Shown here: positions 6,127 to 39,008 of the stretch, in pieces
Numbering within the stretch: position 1 is the stretch's first letter
Layout: each line of letters starts with the position of its first letter
From: a virus
Taxonomy: Duplodnaviria > Caudoviricetes
Direction: 5' to 3' (one strand)
DNA: 64,000 nt
IMG/VR virus record: IMGVR_UViG_2848732850_000001
Coordinates: 2,123-66,122 of that record
Notes under the pieces: model-generated
Told to the model about the DNA's origin: nothing
The model's input: the letters and a program-made list of their open reading frames with translations, nothing else
Databases searched by the model: none
Made by a program: the position numbers and the translations under genes

Positions 6127-6920
6127 CAGATAAAGAACGGTTGGAAAAGATAAAAGTCAAATACAATGCTGGCAATGCTGGGAAATTAGGGGAATTCATA
6201 GATTTAAAATTAGTTAATCCGTATGATTTGAAATACCTAATCGAGCGAGTACAGGAGTTGGAGAAAGATATAGATGAATGGGAAATAGTTAATGATTCCT
6301 GGGAAGAAATAAACACGAGTTTAGCAAAACAAAACAAACGCTATCGCGAAGCGATTGAATATGCGCATGGAGAATTAAAAAATAGCCCAAGACTTAGTTT
6401 AGAAGCTTTAGAAGCGATGGAAATATTAGGCGATGCATTGGAGGGTGAGGAATGAAGGATTACGAAACGAAAGGTATAGGCGGATTTATTGTATGCAAGG
6501 AGCACGCTAGGTCACGATGCGCCGAATGCGCTTATATTGAAGAATTGAAGGAAATACAACGTAAGTATTGGTGTGCGTATTACGGAATTAAGGCGGAATT
6601 GGATAAAGCCGAAACAATGCTCAAAGAAGCCAAACATCCGTTAGCGAAAACGGAATGGCAGTCATACAAAGACGGCATACAAATGGCGTTAAAACTATTA
6701 GACGCGGAGGACGACGAAAATGAGTGACGGATATACCTACGCACTATATAAAGACGGGAGTATTTACGGAACAGCGTCAAGTCCGCAGTATATGACCGAA
6801 CTATTTTGGGATTACGTCGAATTAATGGATATGTACGGCAAGCAACACGTAAGGTTTGACGTAGTTAAAGTCAGTGGCAAAGGCGAGTTAAAACCGCACT
6901 TAGACGAAAAGGAGGAATAG
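6123..6920 (+). CDS. Three small coupled hypothetical ORFs (6123-6455, 6452-6727, ~6720-6920)
   Basis: ATGA-type overlaps and RBSs. Confidence 0.55.
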
Positions 6921-31297: not shown

Positions 31298-32848
31298 TTG
31301 TTTAACGAGGAGAACAAGGATTTTTACCCCACGCCTAAAGATCTGTTTTATAAACTGATGAATGGAACTAGATATATAAGCGGTAGAATTTTAGAGCCGT
31401 CCGCCGGAAAAGGTGACTTGATTCGATATATAAAAGAATTAAATCGTAATGTAAAAATAGACGCAATAGAAAGGGACAGCCGTTTATCGGGTCTGCTAAT
31501 GGGCGAAGGAATTAACGTCGTATGGGATGACTTTCTCACGTATAAAACGTATAAAGAATACGACCTTATCGTAATGAATCCACCATTTAGCAACGGAGTA
31601 GACCACGCTTTGAAGGCGTTGGAGTTAGTGGAAAATCAACTGAGTGCTTGCGAAGTTTATATAATACTAAATAAAGAAACGCTTAACAACGCCTATTCCA
31701 ATAAAAGACAAGAGTTGTTGCGTAAGCTAAACGAACACAACGCAGAAATTAGGTACGTAAAGGACGCTTTTACTTCTGCTGAACGAAAAACGGACGTAGA
31801 GGTTGCGTTAATTAACGTTGTAATCGCAAATAAAGGAGAAGGCAAGTCGATATACGACGATATTCCGTTTATTAGGCGAGAGGAAACGGAAGGCGCTGCC
31901 TCACTAGAAACAGCGTTGTCTACATACGTTAAAAGTAACGAAGTTAAGGCGAAAATTAACGACATAGAACGTTTAGTGCTTGAGTACGAAAAGGCGTGCG
32001 AGGTTGCTAAAACGTCGTACAAGGTTATGCGTAATAAGTCCTCTCTGTTTAGTTATTTCGGTAAAGTAAACAAGAAAGACAGCGAAATTGGTTCGCCTTT
32101 TACTTACGTGACCAAAAAAGAGTATACCGCAGAAGATTTAAACAACGAGCTAGATAGTTTAAGACGGATTTATTGGGAGTTAATTTTAGATACAGGCGAA
32201 TTTAAAGAGCTGTTAACAAACGAGTCAAGACAGAAGCTAACCCGCCAATTAGAGGTAGCAAACGAAATGGAGATAAATATAACAAACATTAAAACGTTGT
32301 TAACTGCTCTAGGCGCAAACCGTGAAGATATGTTAATCGACTCTATTATTTCGATGTTTGAACGTATTACACAGTACCATATGAATCAGTACTCGACTAA
32401 CATCCACTATTACGACGGATGGAAAACGAACAACGCTTATAAAATTAACAAAAAGATAATCATTCCGATACAACGAGGCGGCTTTGACGAATGGGATTAT
32501 AGAGAGGATTTCGGCATTTTATGTATGGGCGTCAGAGAGTTTATAGAGGACATCGTAAAAGCGTTCCAACTGATCGACCCTTCCGTGTCAAACGAATTTA
32601 CTTACGTAGCTAGAGGAGAGTTTGAAAACGACTTACTCCGTTTTAAAATGTTTAACAACGGTAATATCCACGTTTGGTTTAAACGCTTTGACTTGCTAAA
32701 CAGGCTTAATTATATATGTGGTAGTCACTTCAACTGGATTCCGTCCGAGGACGAAGTTAAAACGGACAGCAAAGCACGGGAATTTGTCGTCAAGGAATTC
32801 GGAGAAGGCGTCTTATCAAGCGGATTGTTAGTCGGAGGTGCTTCGTAA
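31298..32848 (+). CDS. Putative N6-adenine methyltransferase with DUF4942-like C-terminus
   Basis: DFYPTP, ILEPSAGKG, MNPPF; C-terminal KMFNNGNIHVWF...LN. Confidence 0.85.
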   Translation: MFNEENKDFYPTPKDLFYKLMNGTRYISGRILEPSAGKGDLIRYIKELNRNVKIDAIERDSRLSGLLMGEGINVVWDDFLTYKTYKEYDLIVMNPPFSNGVDHALKALELVENQLSACEVYIILNKETLNNAYSNKRQELLRKLNEHNAEIRYVKDAFTSAERKTDVEVALINVVIANKGEGKSIYDDIPFIRREETEGAASLETALSTYVKSNEVKAKINDIERLVLEYEKACEVAKTSYKVMRNKSSLFSYFGKVNKKDSEIGSPFTYVTKKEYTAEDLNNELDSLRRIYWELILDTGEFKELLTNESRQKLTRQLEVANEMEINITNIKTLLTALGANREDMLIDSIISMFERITQYHMNQYSTNIHYYDGWKTNNAYKINKKIIIPIQRGGFDEWDYREDFGILCMGVREFIEDIVKAFQLIDPSVSNEFTYVARGEFENDLLRFKMFNNGNIHVWFKRFDLLNRLNYICGSHFNWIPSEDEVKTDSKAREFVVKEFGEGVLSSGLLVGGAS

Positions 32849-33504
32849 TGAGCGAGGAGACCACCTACAAAGAACGCTTACAAGACGACTATAACCGTAT
32901 ACGCACGCAAGTAAAGGCGGGCGAACTTCCGCAGCCAGCCCGCAACCAAGCGATAGACGAAGCGGTGAGTGCGTATGTCCTAGCGCAGGATACGGAGTTT
33001 GAACGTAAGGGGGATCGCGCGCCCATTGCGTTTAGGGATGCGAACATGCTCGATCGATTCGCAAATTTAATCCTACACGAAGATTTGACGTGGAGTCATC
33101 CGGATAAAATGAGTATCGTGGAGTATCCGGTGATGAGTGACGCGCAAGAATGTCGGAGGGAGCGTAAATATAGACCGTCTGATAACGTTTATTACGATAG
33201 TGGGCAGTTTAGCGGTAGGAAAACGGGCTACGACATGGGAGAGGACGGAGAACTTGGAAAGAAAACGTCGAGCCCCGTATTTAGTCCGATACATAACGAG
33301 GAAATTAATCGAAAAGACGTAAGTATAGACGTGCTTACGTTGTTAGATGACGCAGGATTGACGACTAGGCAACGAGAGGCGGTCGAGTTGGTATATTTCG
33401 AGGGATTGACGCAGGAGCAGGCGGCTGAGCGGATGGGCATACACAAAGCAAACGTCAATGCTTACGTGGGGTTTGCGTTAGATAAACTGCGGGTGGTTAC
33501 GTAA
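32848..33504 (+). CDS. Sigma-70 region 4-like transcription factor
   Basis: LTTRQREAVELVYFEGLTQEQAAERMGI...V...ALDKL. Confidence 0.82.
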   Translation: MSEETTYKERLQDDYNRIRTQVKAGELPQPARNQAIDEAVSAYVLAQDTEFERKGDRAPIAFRDANMLDRFANLILHEDLTWSHPDKMSIVEYPVMSDAQECRRERKYRPSDNVYYDSGQFSGRKTGYDMGEDGELGKKTSSPVFSPIHNEEINRKDVSIDVLTLLDDAGLTTRQREAVELVYFEGLTQEQAAERMGIHKANVNAYVGFALDKLRVVT

Positions 33505-33536
33505 AAAGCCTACTCCTTTATTGGGGTAGGCTTTTT
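33503..33536. terminator. Bidirectional intrinsic terminator at left edge of island
   Basis: AAAAAGCCTACTCC-loop-GGGGTAGGCTTTTT between convergent genes. Confidence 0.85.
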
Positions 33537-33537
33537 A

Positions 33538-33861
33538 TTAGTCATCCATTGAAAAAGCTATAACTTTTTCTTTCGCTTCTTCACCCTCATTTATCCATTC
33601 AGCTAGAAAATAAGCTCTAATAGTTTGTGTTTCTTCACCTTCTACCTTAAACTCAACACTTAATTCTTTATAAATGTTGAAAAAATTAATGGTTTCATAG
33701 TCTTTTTCTATATACGAAACCAGGCTATCTCTTGAAAAATTATTGTCTTCAAGGTAATCTTCGATATCTTTTACCATATCTTCCAAGCAATCCTCGTGAT
33801 AATATATACCCAAGAAACAATTAGCCAGTGTTTTAACGTCACTATATTGCAAAGATTCCAT
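33538..33861 (-). CDS. Small acidic protein, anti-defence candidate
   Basis: 107 aa, D/E-rich, RBS AAGGGGAA, island context. Confidence 0.7.
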   Translation of the reverse strand: MESLQYSDVKTLANCFLGIYYHEDCLEDMVKDIEDYLEDNNFSRDSLVSYIEKDYETINFFNIYKELSVEFKVEGEETQTIRAYFLAEWINEGEEAKEKVIAFSMDD

Positions 33862-33921
33862 TTCAATTCCCCTTTTCTTTTTTCATTCTAAGGCAGTGAG
33901 TTAGTCACTACCTGTATTTGT

Positions 33922-34296
33922 TTAATAAACAACCTCAATTACTACCGCGTCCTCTATAACAACCTCACCAACGTCTAAATCATCATCTTTGTTAACGTCT
34001 CTATTGCCTGCTATTATGTAGCAGTGATAACTGTCGTACTCGCTATCAAAGTCGTCAAATTCGTGTATGTTCCATGCGCTTGTGCCGTCAAATAGCTTCA
34101 TTTCTTCGTATTCTTCTGTTCCGTACTCGGGCATTTCTCTTTCATCCTCCCGATCTGAGTTGTGACGGCTACGCTCGCAGATGTCTCCGACTTGGCGCTC
34201 TTTATCTTCGAAACGTACGCCAATTACATCGTACTCAATTTCGTCGTTTTCCCACTGCTCAATGATTCTTTCAACAACTTCTTTTAGGTTTTTCAT
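33922..34296 (-). CDS. Very acidic small protein, DNA-mimic/Acr candidate
   Basis: 124 aa, roughly one third D/E; RBS AGGAGG; first gene after a near-consensus promoter. Confidence 0.75.
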   Translation of the reverse strand: MKNLKEVVERIIEQWENDEIEYDVIGVRFEDKERQVGDICERSRHNSDREDEREMPEYGTEEYEEMKLFDGTSAWNIHEFDDFDSEYDSYHCYIIAGNRDVNKDDDLDVGEVVIEDAVVIEVVY

Positions 34297-34337
34297 TTCT
34301 ATTCCTCCTGTGATTTTGAATTCTTTTCCTTAACTTC

Positions 34338-34429
34338 TGATTTCATTATAATATACATTGAAATCAAAGTCAACACTTTTGATATAAAAAATTTGATATT
34401 TGAATTCTTTTTATAGTACAATGATATCA
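34338..34429. promoter_or_regulatory. Divergent promoters with TGAWWTCA boxes
   Basis: Minus TTGACT-N17-TATAAT (34345-34373); TGATTTCA 34338, TGAAATCA 34359, TGATATCA 34422. Confidence 0.7.
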
Positions 34430-34460
34430 AACAAAGATATTAAAGGAGATTATTATTATT

Positions 34461-34670
34461 ATGAAAAAAACTAATGAACGTACAGTAGCTAATATTTATA
34501 AAGACACAAGGGAGCTACTTAATGACTTTAAGACAAAGTACGAATTAAAAAGTGATGACCAAGCTATACGCTTTTTATGCCATTCTTTTGATGAGGAAAA
34601 AGGAAAAATGCTAAAAACTTATCTCGAGGTTAAAAAAGGGAAGAAAGGAGAGTCGCAAAACGATGAATGA
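34461..34670 (+). CDS. Putative ribbon-helix-helix regulator
   Basis: RTVANIYKDTRELLNDFK...SDDQAIRFL beta-alpha-alpha pattern. Confidence 0.55.
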   Translation: MKKTNERTVANIYKDTRELLNDFKTKYELKSDDQAIRFLCHSFDEEKGKMLKTYLEVKKGKKGESQNDE

Positions 34671-36003
34671 AACCGTACATGTAAAAGTATACTTTTCTGG
34701 TCGCTGTCCTCGTTGCAACCGATATAACGAGGAATTAACTTATGATTACGGCGTAAAGCCGTATAAAGATGTGGAAAAAGAAATGGATAAGGTAAACCAT
34801 AAAGTACAAGACATGTTATGTAAGTACTGCTCAACAGATTTTGCACCAGAGTCTCTTATATATAAGGAGACATTAGCGGACGTCAAGCTTGCACAAGTGG
34901 CGATAAATTACGACAACACGCTTGATGCCGAAACAAGTCGTCTATTAAATGCAGCGCATGCCAATCGGTTTGATTTTTTTAAACAACACGAGTCAGAGTT
35001 TTGGGACGGATTTGTCGCTCAAGCCTTACAAAACTGGCGTGACAGTATAAACGAGTTACAACCGCATGAGTTATTAGCAGGGTTAAATGCTTTAAATATA
35101 CCAACTAACGGACGTACAGCAAATCAATTAAAGCGTGAGGTACTAAACCGAGTAAAAACAACGGAGCAAAAAGCAAAATTTTGGCGATCAGCTAACCATG
35201 ACTATGTTTATAACCAACTCTTGGATATAGGTCCAATGGGATGGGACGTTGAAACAGAGATAAAACAATTTGGTCAATTGCGTACAAGATATGCTGTACT
35301 CAATTATCCAATGGAGGAGGTACAAGAGCGCCTGCGTACGGATATGATTGGTAAAGTAGTGCGTAAAGATCGTGGAGATAACGCCTTTTTATTTAAACGC
35401 ATTGCTCAATTGTCTGACGATTTTAGTCGTCTGTCTAAAAAACTACTGGACAGATATCATCAGATGCAGGAGTTGCGTGCTGAGATAGATGATAAAAATA
35501 TATTGATACATGAGTTGCGTCAGGCTCTTAAAAACGAGAGAACTAATAAAAATATTGTTAGCCGTGATCCAGATGACATCCGTAAAATACATGAGTTAAA
35601 AAGTCTCGTTAATGAGTTGAACGAGGTAAAGGGAGGGGAAAAAGAAGAACCGAAAGAGGTTGTTATCGAGGAAACTCCTATCAAAGCCGAATCAGCACAA
35701 CCAGCGGAAAAACGTAGCTTAGAGGGTAAAACCATTGGAATAATTGGTGGAAACCGGTCTGAGCAAGCCGAGCAAATAACGGAGTGCAATATATTGACTC
35801 ATGGAGGTAACGACCAAGATCATGAGTTTGATGCCTTGCTAAACGAGTCGGACGAGCTAGTTATACTAACCCGTTTTGTCTCACATGCAGCGATGTGGAA
35901 AGCAAAAGCGCATGCTATTACTGAGGGAAAACCGATACATTATATTAAATCAATTAACATACATCGTATCTTAGATGAGATAAAAACAATCACTACAACC
36001 TAG
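34663..36003 (+). CDS. Zn-ribbon / coiled-coil / DUF2325-like C-terminal domain protein
   Basis: CPRC..CKYC; heptads ~250-325; IGIIGG...D..VILTRFVSH.AMW.AK..A...GKP. Confidence 0.7.
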   Translation: MNETVHVKVYFSGRCPRCNRYNEELTYDYGVKPYKDVEKEMDKVNHKVQDMLCKYCSTDFAPESLIYKETLADVKLAQVAINYDNTLDAETSRLLNAAHANRFDFFKQHESEFWDGFVAQALQNWRDSINELQPHELLAGLNALNIPTNGRTANQLKREVLNRVKTTEQKAKFWRSANHDYVYNQLLDIGPMGWDVETEIKQFGQLRTRYAVLNYPMEEVQERLRTDMIGKVVRKDRGDNAFLFKRIAQLSDDFSRLSKKLLDRYHQMQELRAEIDDKNILIHELRQALKNERTNKNIVSRDPDDIRKIHELKSLVNELNEVKGGEKEEPKEVVIEETPIKAESAQPAEKRSLEGKTIGIIGGNRSEQAEQITECNILTHGGNDQDHEFDALLNESDELVILTRFVSHAAMWKAKAHAITEGKPIHYIKSINIHRILDEIKTITTT

Positions 36004-36036
36004 TAACCTGTTGGTATGGCTGTAGTGATGTTTAAA

Positions 36037-36065
36037 TTGACAGTACCTAAAATGTATTATATACT
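36037..36065 (+). promoter_or_regulatory. SigmaA promoter driving the solitary CRISPR repeat
   Basis: TTGACA-N17-TATACT, 11 nt upstream of the repeat; no ORF downstream on +. Confidence 0.85.
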
Positions 36066-36076
36066 TTATATATATA

Positions 36077-36138
36077 GTCGCCCGAGCAGGGCGTGGATTG
36101 AAACAATCTATTAGTAATGTAGACTAAAGGGTTTGTTA
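36077..36138 (+). CRISPR. Solitary type I-C-like CRISPR repeat (36077-36104) plus 34-nt spacer-like segment
   Basis: GTCGCCCGAGCAGGGCGTGGATTGAAAC: I-C-type 5' GTCGC and 3' GCGTGGATTGAAA(C/T), stem CGCCC/GGGCG; no second repeat and no cas genes. Confidence 0.85.
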
Positions 36139-36172
36139 AAAGAAGAGTGCCTATGTGGTGCTCTTCTTTCTT
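36139..36172 (+). terminator. Intrinsic terminator closing the repeat transcript
   Basis: AAAGAAGAGTGCC-TATGT-GGTGCTCTTCTTT; two G-U pairs form only on the + strand RNA. Confidence 0.75.
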
Positions 36173-36485
36173 ATTCATATGATTTGTCCTGAAGATACTC
36201 TTGATAAGAGTGGATCAACATCAACTGGATTTTATCGTCAACGGATGGATAAAAACCCCCGTATTTTTCAAAATCTTCAACCGAACAATAGTCCATCCTA
36301 GGACTCGGTGCGTATTGTCCTCCATACCGCAAGTATTTCCTTGCTTGTTTTTCGTCTATATGGTGACTTATTTCAAAATCACCGTATTTTTTTTCGAAGT
36401 GCTCGCCTACTTTATCTGATTCATATGCTAACATTGATTTATCGTTAGCGAATCCTCTACCTGAATAAACTAAGAATTTAATCAT
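36171..36485 (-). CDS. Small hypothetical protein, anti-defence candidate
   Basis: 104 aa, RBS AAGGGGAA, second gene under the operator-bearing promoter. Confidence 0.7.
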   Translation of the reverse strand: MIKFLVYSGRGFANDKSMLAYESDKVGEHFEKKYGDFEISHHIDEKQARKYLRYGGQYAPSPRMDYCSVEDFEKYGGFYPSVDDKIQLMLIHSYQEYLQDKSYE

Positions 36486-36544
36486 GTCTGTTTCCCCTTT
36501 TCTTTTTATTATAAGGCAGCGATTAACTTGCTGCCTTTATTTAA

Positions 36545-36757
36545 TTAATCTAAGCTAATAACGTTCCCGTTTCCGTCTTCCCATCCGTTAACATCTTCAC
36601 CGTTGTTTAAGTCTTCGATGATTTGTTCTTGGTCTTCTACAGTGGCGGGGTTGATTGTTCCCACTACCTTACCATTTTGGACTATTTCAAATTCGTGCAA
36701 ATCACCATCAAAATCTTTTTCCTCTACAGTGTAAGTTTCTCTAACCCATGTTCTCAT
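36545..36757 (-). CDS. Small acidic protein, Acr candidate
   Basis: 70 aa, 18 D/E vs 4 K/R; RBS AGGAGG. Confidence 0.75.
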   Translation of the reverse strand: MRTWVRETYTVEEKDFDGDLHEFEIVQNGKVVGTINPATVEDQEQIIEDLNNGEDVNGWEDGNGNVISLD

Positions 36758-36813
36758 TTTTTAGTTCCTCCTATGTTTTTTATTTTTTTATAGTATCTCT
36801 TGTTGTTAATACT

Positions 36814-36842
36814 ATTATATAACCTTATAAGGTTAATGCCAA
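36814..36842 (-). promoter_or_regulatory. SigmaA promoter with palindromic operator
   Basis: TTGGCA-N17-TATAAT; spacer contains perfect palindrome TAACCTTATAAGGTTA (36820-36835). Confidence 0.85.
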
Positions 36843-36860
36843 CAGGAAAATGAAAGTTTT

Positions 36861-37088
36861 TTATTCTTTTTCTCCAAACCAGTATTCCATGGCTTGTACA
36901 CTTATGATCCATTCTTTTCGCTTGCCATCTGGCTTTTGGAAATACTTTATAAGCCCTTGATCTATTAATCGGTCAATAGATTCTTGACCAACAACAGACG
37001 GCTTTAATTTATTTTTTACTGTTTCTAAGGACACCCCCCAACGGTGGGCGGCTTCCGATGGTGACATATAATTATTTATTTCTTTCAC
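36861..37088 (-). CDS. Small HTH protein, Aca-like repressor candidate
   Basis: MSPSEAAHRWGVSLETVKNKL HTH and WIIS..AM..WFG tail; last gene of its operon. Confidence 0.75.
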   Translation of the reverse strand: MKEINNYMSPSEAAHRWGVSLETVKNKLKPSVVGQESIDRLIDQGLIKYFQKPDGKRKEWIISVQAMEYWFGEKE

Positions 37089-38005
37089 GTTTTCCTCTCC
37101 TTTAATTCCATGTATTCTTTTATTTTAGGCACTTCCTTTTTGCTTTGATAGTAGAGTATTTTACATACATCACTACCACTGTGATCTGCTATCTTTTTGA
37201 TAGTTGTGCCTAAATAAATATGTAAGTGTTGATTAAGCATATCCAATAGCTGGTAACTAGCGTAAAATCGTAGTCTAGGCTGGGTTCTTACACGATCGTA
37301 ACTATAGTGGGTATAAAAATACCCTTTTAAAAAGTTATGCTCATCCAGCCGTCTAAATAGTCGTGGTGCCGATCTTTCCAAATTTCCTTGACGGCCTACA
37401 TATCCGTTTTTAATCATGTATTGTACATACTCATTATCAATCCTCATTTTAACTCGATAAGACTTTTTCCTGCTATCGGTAACAGTATTAAATATTTTAT
37501 TTTGGATACCTGTAATTCTCTTTACCTTTAACAGTAATTTCTTATCCGAGTTTTGGATGAGGAAATAATCGCCAGAAAAACGAGCACTACCCCATAAAAA
37601 CCCTAAAACCCAATAACTTAGCGAAGATTTCCTTGAGCATCCACACGATTTTGCATTACCACTCACTAAATTAGTTGTGGTGACTTTGGTATACTCATTA
37701 CAATCGCATCGGCATAACCACAACGCTGACTTAGTTGTTGGGTGTGTACCTAGCCTTTTGATCACAGTCAACTTATTAAATGTTTGACCAGCTAAATCGC
37801 GTGTGTTTACCTCCGCTGCTCTCTCAGGTTTTAAACACCCGCACGATCGTGTATTTCCACTTCGCAAACTATCCATTAGTACGACTGTGTAGTTCTCACA
37901 TTTACACTTACAGAGCCAACGCCTTTTTGTGCCATGTTGCTCTACCTCTTTTACTACAGTCAATTTACCGTAACTTTGACCGGAAATATCCAAGCGTTTA
38001 CGCAT
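37085..38005 (-). CDS. Tandem Cys-rich homing-endonuclease-type repeats fused to a degenerate LAGLIDADG-like domain
   Basis: 2x D..GQ...KLTV...WLC.C.C......L.SGN..SCGC; then YWVLGFLWGSA and HNFLKGYFYTH. Confidence 0.65.
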   Translation of the reverse strand: MRKRLDISGQSYGKLTVVKEVEQHGTKRRWLCKCKCENYTVVLMDSLRSGNTRSCGCLKPERAAEVNTRDLAGQTFNKLTVIKRLGTHPTTKSALWLCRCDCNEYTKVTTTNLVSGNAKSCGCSRKSSLSYWVLGFLWGSARFSGDYFLIQNSDKKLLLKVKRITGIQNKIFNTVTDSRKKSYRVKMRIDNEYVQYMIKNGYVGRQGNLERSAPRLFRRLDEHNFLKGYFYTHYSYDRVRTQPRLRFYASYQLLDMLNQHLHIYLGTTIKKIADHSGSDVCKILYYQSKKEVPKIKEYMELKERKT

Positions 38006-38370
38006 TATGCAGCAACCTCACTCTTTCTTAAGTTAATAATTTGACCATTAACAACTTTGATGTATTTACGCTCGCCACCATCGCACACCTCGTATATACC
38101 GTTGTTAAGTTCAAATTCTTTCCCGTCCCAGCTACAGCTGGAAACCGGATCAACAAACTCGCGAGCGAAACCAAAACGGGCATCTTTGCCAGTAATGCGA
38201 GCAACCCAAGACTTGTGCTTACGAGAACCATGCGTGGTGTTAATTACAACTTTGCGAGTTTCCGCCCATGCCATTTTTAAAGCTTGTGCGAAATACTCTT
38301 TAACTTTACCTCCAAATTTAGCTTGTCCTTGTCTTGCGATCTCCCATGCTCTAACCATTACTTTTTTCAT
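38005..38370 (-). CDS. Hypothetical early phage protein
   Basis: RBS AAAGGAGG before ATG 38370; M.RAWEIA...YFA.ALK.AW N-domain. Confidence 0.75.
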   Translation of the reverse strand: MKKVMVRAWEIARQGQAKFGGKVKEYFAQALKMAWAETRKVVINTTHGSRKHKSWVARITGKDARFGFAREFVDPVSSCSWDGKEFELNNGIYEVCDGGERKYIKVVNGQIINLRKSEVAA

Positions 38371-38400
38371 TTCCGTTTCCTCCTTTGTTTTGTTAATTCT

Positions 38401-38429
38401 ATTATATAACCTTATAAGGTTAAAGTCAA
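38401..38429 (-). promoter_or_regulatory. SigmaA promoter with the same palindromic operator
   Basis: TTGACT-N17-TATAAT; TAACCTTATAAGGTTA at 38407-38422; degenerate copy ~38464-38479. Confidence 0.88.
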
Positions 38430-38615
38430 TAGGTTTTTGCAACTTTTTTTTATTTATTTTTAGTAACCTTTTAACGTTTAGTTAGCTTAGAGGGTGAGGA
38501 CGAGGTTTACAACTATTGGCAAGCGTAAACCTTCTTTCGTTATTAGTTTAATGACCAGCCGCGGAAAGTCTCCGGACACCGCGGTAATTAATATTATTAA
38601 AAAGGAGACGACGAT

Positions 38616-39008
38616 ATGACGAACAAGGCGGCTGGGCAAGCGCGCGAAGTTGAGGCGATTGAATGTAATGTCACGGCGGATAATTGGGGCAAGCACGTAG
38701 ACATATCCGAAGCACTCACCGGACTAAAAGCGGAGCAGGAACATGCGGACAGTATGAAAATAGATTTCGATAGCCTAAAAGGTGCGCTAAAGTCGTACGT
38801 AGAAACACAAAACAAATATGACGGTTACCACGACATTAGTTTTGACAAGGTATTCGAGATACTAAACGGATATAACAACGGTAACTGGCGTATTAGTGAT
38901 TATATTATACATGCAACAACAAAGACGTCCGAAAGCGGGGTATTAACTTACGGTGACGATCAATTCGTAATTGTGCGATTTACTAGTCGCGGAGGTGATT
39001 CGGACTAA
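38616..39008 (+). CDS. Hypothetical protein
   Basis: RBS AAGGAG; 130 aa. Confidence 0.6.
   Translation: MTNKAAGQAREVEAIECNVTADNWGKHVDISEALTGLKAEQEHADSMKIDFDSLKGALKSYVETQNKYDGYHDISFDKVFEILNGYNNGNWRISDYIIHATTKTSESGVLTYGDDQFVIVRFTSRGGDSD

Follow-up and report, generated by a model that had tools for sequence, protein, structure and literature searches.

A type I-C CRISPR repeat mimic beside repressor-gated small genes: a candidate anti-CRISPR locus in a Bacillaceae prophage

Aca proteins shut off anti-CRISPR (acr) promoters after an early burst. The locus treated here is a block of mostly small genes at about positions 33503-38490 of a 64,000-nucleotide window (bases 2123-66122 of the 66,122-bp IMG/VR provirus IMGVR_UViG_2848732850_000001, which is rated complete and is given without host flanks), and it resembles several described systems, summarised here as they stand in the accessible parts of the cited sources. 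Candidate RNA anti-CRISPRs (Racr) are typically promoter-proximal solitary repeats and are enriched within 1 kb of acr genes (PMC10651486); one of them, RacrIC1, adjoins AcrIC5 in a Bifidobacterium pseudocatenulatum prophage (Camara-Wilpert et al. 2023, PMC10651486). Cracr are viral RNAs resembling CRISPR RNA (crRNA), consisting of a repeat plus a spacer-like segment, which turn Cas complexes into silencers of cas or creT genes (Liu et al., bioRxiv 10.1101/2024.10.29.618823). They are defined by a match of at least 9 bases, proximal to the protospacer-adjacent motif, to a host cas or creT promoter; their predicted targets include type I-C systems and Bacillota, and they are often co-encoded with Acr proteins (bioRxiv 10.1101/2024.10.29.618823). 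Among the proteins, Aca14 represses two operons (bioRxiv 10.64898/2026.07.27.740549), AcrIF24 is an Acr protein fused to its own regulator domain (PMC9638941, PMC9001735) and AcrIF11, an anti-CRISPR that is an ADP-ribosyltransferase, is the protein of structure 6KYF (PMC12421852).

Our locus contains a solitary CRISPR repeat unit on the plus strand, four small minus-strand open reading frames (ORFs) named here by length (ORF124, ORF107, ORF104 and ORF70) and a gene for a 75-residue helix-turn-helix (HTH) protein, HTH75. We read it as an anti-CRISPR locus of a known kind, in which a Racr- or Cracr-type RNA accompanies regulated cargo, and put the probability of this reading at roughly 0.4. The RNA part is well supported. 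The proteins are linked to counter-defence by association, through their neighbours, their charge and their gated promoters and, for ORF124, also through a hint of an enzyme fold. In this reading at least one protein cargo gene would also be a counter-defence factor; that one or more of the four small ORFs encode an Acr or other anti-defence protein is a tentative proposal, short of even odds. From the anatomy of the locus, an operator that is kept with the HTH gene and an RNA mimic that is co-located with ORF124 or ORF70 homologs, all of which are observed directly, we infer every function proposed below.

The RNA gene begins with a plus-strand promoter-like site (36037-36065, TTGACA-17-TATACT) that has 11 of 12 hexamer matches, the score used throughout. 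Eleven bases past the end of its -10 hexamer (36065) begins the repeat unit (36077-36104), 28 nt of the sequence GTCGCCCGAGCAGGGCGTGGATTGAAAC with a 5-bp G+C stem and the ending GTGGATTGAAAC. A 34-nt spacer-like segment (36105-36138) and an intrinsic terminator (36139-36169; 13 pairs, then a T-rich tail) follow on the same strand. The strong promoter would make an RNA of about 100 nt consisting of the I-C repeat mimic, the 34-nt segment and the terminator hairpin, and in the predicted fold of this transcript (z = -4.1) both the repeat hairpin of 5 bp, as expected, and the terminator form. When sought by GTGGATTGAAAC with up to one mismatch, the repeat is single-copy in the 66-kb provirus; no second copy was found among the repeats of the region, and no Cas family among the neighbour genes by Pfam or PADLOC. 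Its 5' GTCGC and its last 14 nt are shared with the type I-C repeat of Legionella pneumophila, which has 32 nt, and its stem is shorter (accessible part of PMC5071653). The accessible part of PMC9504256 quotes the same repeat type and names no subtype there. Because of the fold, the ends shared with the L. pneumophila repeat and the single copy, the solitary repeat is judged from its sequence to be real and of type I-C form. The repeat unit of the original prediction was thus upheld, and predicted promoter and terminator signals can be added to it.

Such an RNA would interfere with a type I-C system of the host by either of two modes. As a decoy it may titrate Cas5c and Cas7c, which is the Racr mode, or it may be processed to a crRNA-like guide that parks Cascade on a host cas promoter, which is the Cracr mode. 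We give the two modes about even odds. The spacer-like segment was compared with several sequence sets. A 38-nt query over the segment gave chance-level matches in 50,697 phage records (best E 0.5), the 34-nt segment itself matched nothing else in the provirus over 12 nt or more, and the exact 28-nt repeat was found in 0 stretches of the viral contig collection and 0 of the genome contig collection. When the spacer-like segments of six related units (described below) were compared in register, the best pair agreed at 12 of 20 positions, with an uncorrected shuffle p of 0.005 over 15 pairs. This apparently weak conservation leaves decoy and guide on a par. In either mode, an action of the RNA on type I-C CRISPR-Cas is likely, judged from sequence.

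The resemblance to RacrIC1-AcrIC5, as the accessible part of that report presents it, lies in a single type I-C repeat look-alike that is intergenic in a prophage, behind a promoter, with no cas genes nearby and set among the small genes of an anti-defence-type locus. It differs in that the RNA here comes from a gene of its own, convergent and with a separate promoter and terminator, rather than being bicistronic with an acr gene, in that the neighbouring proteins are unrelated to AcrIC5 by sequence search and in that the repeat is shortened to 28 nt. Like the Cracr RNAs, as outlined in the accessible part of the preprint, the repeat here is followed by a spacer-like segment.

Further repeat units were found beside homologs of the island proteins. 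A search of viral records with a profile of the ORF124 family gave 41 loci, to which the island proteins were compared by tblastn; with the window these make 42 ORF124-bearing viral records totalling 1,864,675 bases. Four of the 41 loci hold a unit built alike: 20-32 nt separate a hairpin that ends in GGATTGAAA from a second, G+C-rich hairpin. The distance between the repeat and the ORF124 homolog is ~50 nt in locus L013, ~500 nt in L038, ~580 nt in L018, 1.8 kb in the window and ~4.7 kb in L037. There are thus five clear I-C-like units in the 42 records, all within 0.05-4.7 kb of the homolog, and a sixth, a full 32-nt unit, lies ~1 kb downstream in an ORF70 locus (L162). By strict criteria both a promoter and a terminator were scored in three of the six (the window, L018 and L162) and neither in the other three (L013, L037 and L038). 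The 41 whole records hold 34 other matches to GGATTGAAA, 4 in the first five records and 30 in the other 36, and 0 of the 34 have the form of the repeat, L203 with its 4-bp stem being the sole doubtful one. A hand-made combined Fisher estimate for such closeness under random placement, based on the distances and the lengths of the records, is ~2e-5 and is post hoc. A scan of IMG/VR with the I-C repeat pattern gave at least 112 viral loci (L045-L156), at least 86 of them single-copy, a majority that fits the published abundance of viral solitary repeats. Among the matches listed, a few hold real arrays of 4-17 repeats; ten large ORFs beside the arrays of L147 and L081 belong to restriction, recombinase and tail families, with no Cas family among them.

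The second line of evidence concerns the promoters. In the region 18 promoter-like sites were scored, where shuffled sequence would give 16.4, and hence the argument rests on the quality of the sites, their placement before genes and their operators. Three minus-strand sites score 11 of 12 hexamer matches: P1 (38429-38401, TTGACT-17-TATAAT), P2 (36842-36814, TTGGCA-17-TATAAT) and P3 (34373-34345, TTGACT-17-TATAAT). P1 (38407-38422) and P2 (36820-36835) both contain, in the space between their two hexamers (-35 and -10), one and the same perfect palindrome of 16 bp, TAACCTTATAAGGTTA; at up to two mismatches it has 2 matches in the 64-kb window against 0.00 expected, and these are the P1 and P2 sites alone. 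At P3 the -10 hexamer is spanned by an 8-bp inverted pair, TGATTTCA-N13-TGAAATCA (34338-34366; 1 window match against 0.03 expected). The three minus-strand promoters with operators that had been predicted are therefore all present, two with the palindrome and the third with the inverted pair. A plus-strand site of 10 of 12 matches (34393-34422, TTGATA-18-TACAAT) diverges from P3.

Four sets of protein genes follow these sites. The first runs from P1 through a gene of the Gp111 family, a gene for a 306-residue HNH-like protein and HTH75; the second runs from P2 through ORF70 and ORF104; the third runs from P3 through ORF124 and ORF107 and ends at a terminator at 33502-33537; and the fourth runs from the divergent promoter through ORF69 and ORF446. 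In our reading there are four transcription units: P1 would drive the first set, P2 the second and the plus-strand promoter the RNA, and the divergent promoter pair, with its own inverted-repeat operator, would drive ORF124-ORF107 and, in the opposite direction, ORF69-ORF446. An HTH75 dimer would repress P1 and P2 through the identical 16-bp palindrome that fills the spacer between their hexamers.

HTH75 (75 amino acids, minus strand, 36861-37088) is the candidate Aca-like repressor of P1 and P2. The HTH gene had been called from the sequence, and it passes the Pfam cut-offs with 36.0 bits against 25, 29.1 against 27 and 27.0 against 27 (HTH_59/pXO2-72/HTH_17); a search of PDB sequences gave nothing informative. 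The best evidence for its role is that the palindrome covaries with HTH75 homologs. In a scan at up to three mismatches covering 1.65 Mb of viral loci, palindromes were found at promoters in three of the five other loci that have an HTH75 homolog: L005 has a site upstream of its ORF124 homolog, L008 has one exact palindrome upstream of its Gp111-like gene and two copies in the promoter of its ORF124 homolog, and L018 has site pairs upstream of its HNH-like gene and of its ORF124 homolog. In the fourth (L004) the contig stops at the Gp111 start and the promoter lies outside the available sequence. Six matches at three mismatches in unrelated loci look like chance. This sequence covariation supports the view that HTH75, or at least its module, represses its own promoter and a cargo promoter as an Aca protein would.

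The likeness to acr-aca loci and to Aca14, as far as the accessible part of the preprint describes it, is in a small DNA-binding protein encoded at an operon end, in identical inverted repeats inside two strong promoters and in regulated cargo that varies between relatives. As in acr-aca loci, the promoter of the regulator's own operon (P1) contains an operator, and here P2 does also. HTH75 itself belongs to the pXO2-72, HTH_59 and HTH_17 families and, unlike in those systems, the genes upstream of it are Gp111-like and HNH-like rather than small acidic ORFs; the accessible part of the Aca14 preprint (bioRxiv 10.64898/2026.07.27.740549) has no mention of HTH_17, excisionase, PF12728 or Bacill. 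The first gene of the P1 unit encodes a 121-residue protein of the Gp111 family (minus strand, 38005-38370, from the ATG at 38370; PF07410, 101.6 bits against a cut-off of 27.1), which is basic (net +10, pI 9.9) and has a good ribosome-binding site before its ATG; an alternative TTG start at 38442 lies upstream of P1. It had been counted among the Acr candidates and was rejected as such, being basic and a member of the conserved Gp111/HNH-like/HTH module. The HNH/homing-endonuclease-like protein of 306 residues (minus strand, 37085-38005) matches phrog_374 at 2.3e-36 and has repeated Cys-rich N-terminal units; its PADLOC match is weak (E 0.0024). That it keeps the same position in the module suggests that it binds DNA rather than acting in homing. 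Two copies of a Cys-rich unit of ~60 residues can be seen in it; many Bacillales phages have this unit next to a Gp111-like gene, in some cases, such as L013, together with an AP2-like N-terminus. A literature search for Gp111 or PF07410 turned up nothing usable.

ORF124 (minus strand, 33922-34296; 124 residues, net -26) is a conserved acidic protein and a candidate enzyme of the ADP-ribosyltransferase (ART) fold. It had 135 matches among 142 candidates, in Virgibacillus, Bacillus, Paenibacillus and Brevibacillus, and an alignment of 45 members has 14 invariant columns, including R28, S43, N46, R49, D51, R53, S73, Y93, D108 and E111. Its AlphaFold model is of good quality by its own scores (predicted local distance difference test, pLDDT, 89; predicted template-modelling score, pTM, 0.82). 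No Pfam family matches any of the 45 members, the family profile had no match among PDB sequences, the best match in BFVD was an uncharacterised phage protein (E 1.3e-3) and Protein Atlas gave no usable match. By use of Foldseek against the PDB, nothing significant was found; the best-shaped rows were Arr rifampin ADP-ribosyltransferases at query-based template-modelling scores (TMq) of 0.38-0.42, the best being 0.42 to Arr-2 at an E above 1. By VIA the leading rows were a B. cereus protein of unknown function (Z 5.3), Arr (Z 4.7) and Agrobacterium 6b (Z 4.2), followed by many ART, poly(ADP-ribose) polymerase (PARP) or toxin ART domains at Z 2-3 and by 6KYF at Z 2.2. Judged by their titles, at least 17 of the best 50 VIA rows are ART or PARP domains, and this enrichment of one fold class in comparisons of the model is suggestive of an ART-like fold. 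Given the strand order in the model, R28, T72-S73 and E111 could form an R-S-E-type site. The proposal that ORF124 is a DNA mimic was set aside: its invariant polar residues and mixed beta fold, with the weak ART-like resemblance, look like those of an enzyme.

ORF124 would then be an ART-like enzyme acting, like AcrIF11, by modification of a defence protein of the host. Measured against the accessible part of the AcrIF11 report (PMC12421852), the two are alike in being small widespread phage proteins (124 residues, against 137 in the 6KYF chain), in the ART-type fold suggested for ORF124 (6KYF Z 2.2, Arr Z 4.7) and in conserved acidic residues, which in ORF124 lie in a loop before a late strand. 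They differ in that ORF124 has no sequence similarity to AcrIF11 and a structural score far too low for a claim of kinship, in that its target would be type I-C rather than I-F, and in that its R28, T72-S73 and E111 would suggest an R-S-E-type site.

ORF70 (minus strand, 36545-36757; net -14) is a conserved small acidic alpha/beta protein with 35 homologs at 57-76% identity and no match among the phage records. Its model (pLDDT 94.6) has a four-stranded sheet and one helix. The top VIA rows, at Z 4-5, include the N-terminal part of AcrIF24, AcrIF1, a phage enolase inhibitor, an anti-adaptor and immunity proteins. In our reading ORF70 would be a small stoichiometric inhibitor. In three relatives (P0151, P0137 and P0139) its domain is fused to HTH_17, HTH_59 or ribbon-helix-helix (RHH)-like N-termini; a methionine stands at each ORF70 junction, and both true fusion and gene-calling read-through are possible. 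Compared with AcrIF24, as far as the accessible parts of PMC9638941 and PMC9001735 go, the likeness is that the ORF70 domain is joined to such N-termini in some genomes and that the model aligns weakly with the N-terminal part of AcrIF24 (Z 4.4-4.7, chance range). Unlike AcrIF24, ORF70 stands alone in this phage, and the fused architecture also fits antitoxins and ordinary regulators.

The two other small minus-strand proteins are orphans, and hence there is no comparative evidence for them. ORF107 (33538-33861; net -18, pI 4.1), an acidic protein, was found in 1.84 billion representatives only as itself plus one weak match at E 2.9e-4 and has no Pfam, PHROG, PADLOC, NCBIfam or PDB match. ORF104 (36171-36485; net -4, pI 5.5) was alone among 5.8 billion clusters and has no family or PDB match. 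The two have no similarity to each other. All five originally listed ORFs, of 70, 104, 107, 121 and 124 residues, do exist, each with a Shine-Dalgarno sequence, and three are strongly acidic. ORF124, ORF107, ORF104 and ORF70 had nothing below E 0.1 among all PDB chains, solved Acrs included, and matched no PADLOC, PHROG or NCBIfam model. The statement that none could be assigned to a known Acr therefore stands after both PDB-sequence and fold searches (Foldseek, VIA), which gave no convincing match.

On the plus strand, ORF69 (34461-34670) is a small basic protein without a family match and is presumed to be a regulator. It had been called RHH-like, for which Pfam, PHROGs, NCBIfam and PDB sequences give no support, the first three having no match and the PDB search being uninformative. 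ORF446 (34663-36003) has N-terminal cysteine pairs, read by eye as a zinc ribbon, a helical middle with sub-threshold coiled-coil-type Pfam matches only and a C-terminal DUF2325 domain (PF10087, 34.9 bits against a cut-off of 33.6). It had no PADLOC match, no relative in the genome contig collection and uninformative PDB-sequence matches; Protein Atlas gave only unnamed viral or DUF2325 clusters (score 0.86), and a literature search for DUF2325 turned up nothing usable. ORF446 recurs with a small upstream regulator in L004, L020 and L024, and could be a separate prophage cargo system.

Hairpins mark the ends and starts of several of these genes. A bidirectional terminator hairpin (33502-33537; 15-nt arms, 93% complementary, 6-nt loop) lies between a plus-strand sigma-like gene (32848-33504) and the minus-strand ORF124-ORF107 operon. 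A below-threshold Rfam match to Thr_leader (33472-33540, 27.6 bits) was discarded, as it aligns only to this terminator hairpin of the sigma-like gene. A direct repeat, consisting of a hairpin plus a Shine-Dalgarno leader, precedes both ORF107 (33875-33926, minus strand) and ORF104 (36498-36549, minus strand); the two AAAAGGGG-type ribosome-binding leaders are 73% identical over 52 nt, and the hairpin of the ORF104 leader (36513-36537) scores as a plus-strand terminator too. The shared leader has the look of a 5' cassette that can be moved between genes, or of a site of RNA processing.

An integrase-like gene opens the provirus record and an amidase-type endolysin closes it, as read from the first and last 200 bases. 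Its large terminase has 63-64% identity with the enzymes of Bacillus subtilis phages and 48-56% with those from phages of Sporosarcina and Paenibacillus. The best explanation is that the phage is a temperate siphophage of Bacillaceae and that the block is its mosaic accessory hot spot. As the closest named ORF124 homolog is from Virgibacillus dokdonensis (90% identity), the host is probably a Virgibacillus-like, salt-loving relative of Bacillus, judging by this sequence match. The block is flanked on one side by a plus-strand methyltransferase/sigma-like pair (31298-33504) and on the other by plus-strand genes toward the terminase; most of its own genes are on the minus strand, antisense to the phage, as had been noted. 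Its description as AT-rich holds in part: its G+C of 0.35-0.41 is lower than that of most other 1-kb bins of the window (~0.39-0.48), but several others are equally low. Megablast of 33000-39000 against the phage records gave no match.

Relatives show which parts of the block turn over. Among the 41 ORF124 loci, relatives of the HNH-like protein were found by tblastn in 17, of the Gp111-like protein in 11, of HTH75 in four and of ORF446 in three, and relatives of ORF107, ORF104, ORF70 and ORF69 in none. The usual order is Gp111-like, HNH-like, HTH and ORF124, often near lysis genes, an integrase or a repressor, and the 24 viral loci of ORF70 share that upstream module. Since ORF124 and ORF70 loci have the module in common, the sequences support a variable accessory block in which the upstream module is conserved and the downstream cargo changes. 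In the closest viral relative (L002; ORF446 87% and ORF124 90% identical) the HNH-like gene, P2, ORF70, ORF104 and the RNA gene are missing and Gp111-HTH, ORF446 and ORF124 are kept; the Gp111-like and HTH genes directly abut ORF446, other genes follow ORF124 and an XRE-type HTH gene takes the place of ORF69. In L038 a 49-residue ORF directly downstream of the ORF124 homolog (6369-6518) reads like an RHH protein. The L038 ORF, the XRE gene of L002 and ORF69 here indicate that the small regulator paired with ORF124 differs from phage to phage. ORF124 homologs are also found in the cultured Paenibacillus larvae phages Halcyone, Heath and Scottie; that of Halcyone, gp29 (NC_055029.1; L215, 4947-5372), is 52% identical over 77% of the ORF124 query and sits between lysis genes and a CI-like repressor, with no repeat unit nearby.

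Several results weigh against reading the whole locus as anti-CRISPR, and they bear on three other explanations. At the RNA, Rfam aligns the repeat to CRISPR-DR9 below threshold (21.4 bits against 45, E 0.73) and found no CRISPR family in the five related loci, and the repeat has 28 nt against 32 nt in the documented I-C repeat. If the block had nothing to do with defence, being an ordinary region of early or regulatory genes whose repeat-like unit is a vestige or resembles a repeat by chance, both the sub-threshold Rfam score and the near-equality of promoter counts in the region and its shuffles (18 and 16.4) would be expected. We consider this very unlikely, as the hairpin plus GGATTGAAA unit recurs in an intergenic gap at six independent phage loci, three of them with promoter and terminator, and as the last 14 nt are identical to those of a documented type I-C repeat. 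At the proteins, no island ORF matches a known Acr or a PADLOC or NCBIfam family as far as sequence searches can tell; all the fold matches of ORF124 lie below the meaningful level of the tool (best Z 5.3), as does the best VIA match of ORF70 (Z 5.4, chance range for a small fold); and the conservation of ORF124 is unusually high for an Acr. At the regulator, L172 has an HTH75 homolog and no operator within three mismatches, and the layout is not that of a textbook acr-aca operon, since neither a small acr gene nor a gene for any small acidic protein stands immediately before HTH75; the acidic ORF70 is in the next operon downstream. The proposal that the ORFs are unrecognised Acrs against type I-C thus keeps the repeat mimic, the operators and the co-location in its favour, but has no Acr match behind it and has lost the 121-residue ORF.

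The co-location itself may reflect a shared accessory-gene hot spot rather than a functional pair because the reverse test failed (ORF124 homologs were found in 0 of the at least 112 I-C repeat loci listed), because 37 of the 42 ORF124-bearing records lack a repeat mimic and because the P. larvae phages have no unit. This is the ground for a quite plausible alternative, to which we give less than even odds: the RNA alone would inhibit CRISPR, and the proteins would be unrelated accessory or regulatory genes (host take-over, lysogeny control or HTH partners) that share the hot spot downstream of the Gp111/HNH-like/HTH module. The absence of a mimic from 23 of 24 ORF70 loci, the position of Halcyone gp29 at a classic moron site beside lysis genes and a CI-like repressor, the ORF70 fusions to DNA-binding domains, which fit a regulator partner or an oligomerisation domain, and the strong conservation of ORF124, atypical for Acrs, all agree with it. 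It explains less well why all five mimics in 1.86 Mb lie within 4.7 kb of an ORF124 homolog, three of them within 0.6 kb, or why the small acidic proteins are under repressor-gated strong promoters, which is the usual anti-defence make-up (accessible part of PMC10651486). A distinctly improbable alternative is that the block is a prophage defence or addiction cassette, with ORF69-ORF446, ORF70-ORF104 or ORF124-ORF107 as exclusion or toxin-antitoxin-like modules and the RNA as a one-guide mini-array that uses host Cascade against competing phages. Genes antisense to the lytic genes with their own sigma-A promoters and terminators resemble prophage-expressed morons, and the placing of a second small gene behind that of a small acidic protein, which in relatives has N-terminal fusions to RHH or HTH domains, is an antitoxin-like architecture; the ART fold is used by toxins too. 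The length of the 34-nt segment is also within the spacing of real arrays (starts ~66 nt apart with 32-nt repeats), but the segment has no convincing target in the 50,697 phage records (best E 0.5), and the spacer-like segments of the related units, 20-32 nt long, end in a terminator and not in a second repeat. PADLOC at E 0.01 gave no match for 10 proteins except the weak HNH-like one, and ORF104 and ORF107, being orphans, speak against a conserved pairing.

Taken as an anti-CRISPR locus, the block joins an RNA mimic to candidate protein inhibitors and a repressor circuit, a combination already known in principle. New would be the families themselves: an Aca of the HTH_59/pXO2-72 type whose operator is conserved, and the families of ORF124 and of ORF70. 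A bolder proposal, which we think improbable, is that Bacillales phages have in ORF124 and its homologs a new family of anti-CRISPR or anti-defence enzymes, minimal ADP-ribosyltransferases that act alongside the repeat mimic and disable a component of type I-C Cascade or Cas3, and that HTH75 with its AACCTTATAAGGTT operator is a new Aca family gating interchangeable cargo, ORF70 included, across phages of Virgibacillus, Bacillus, Paenibacillus and Brevibacillus. We know of no characterised type I-C inhibitor from a Bacillota phage, no search for one having been made. If the anti-CRISPR reading is true, the phage would carry a compact RNA inhibitor or cas-silencer for type I-C, and the conserved operator-repressor pair would mark Bacillales counter-defence cargo and give a search handle like that provided by aca genes elsewhere. 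ORF124 would be a widespread candidate enzyme, directly testable through its homolog in cultured P. larvae phages. Should the proteins turn out to have no part in defence, the analysis would still have defined a hot spot that recurs among phages, together with the module that regulates it.

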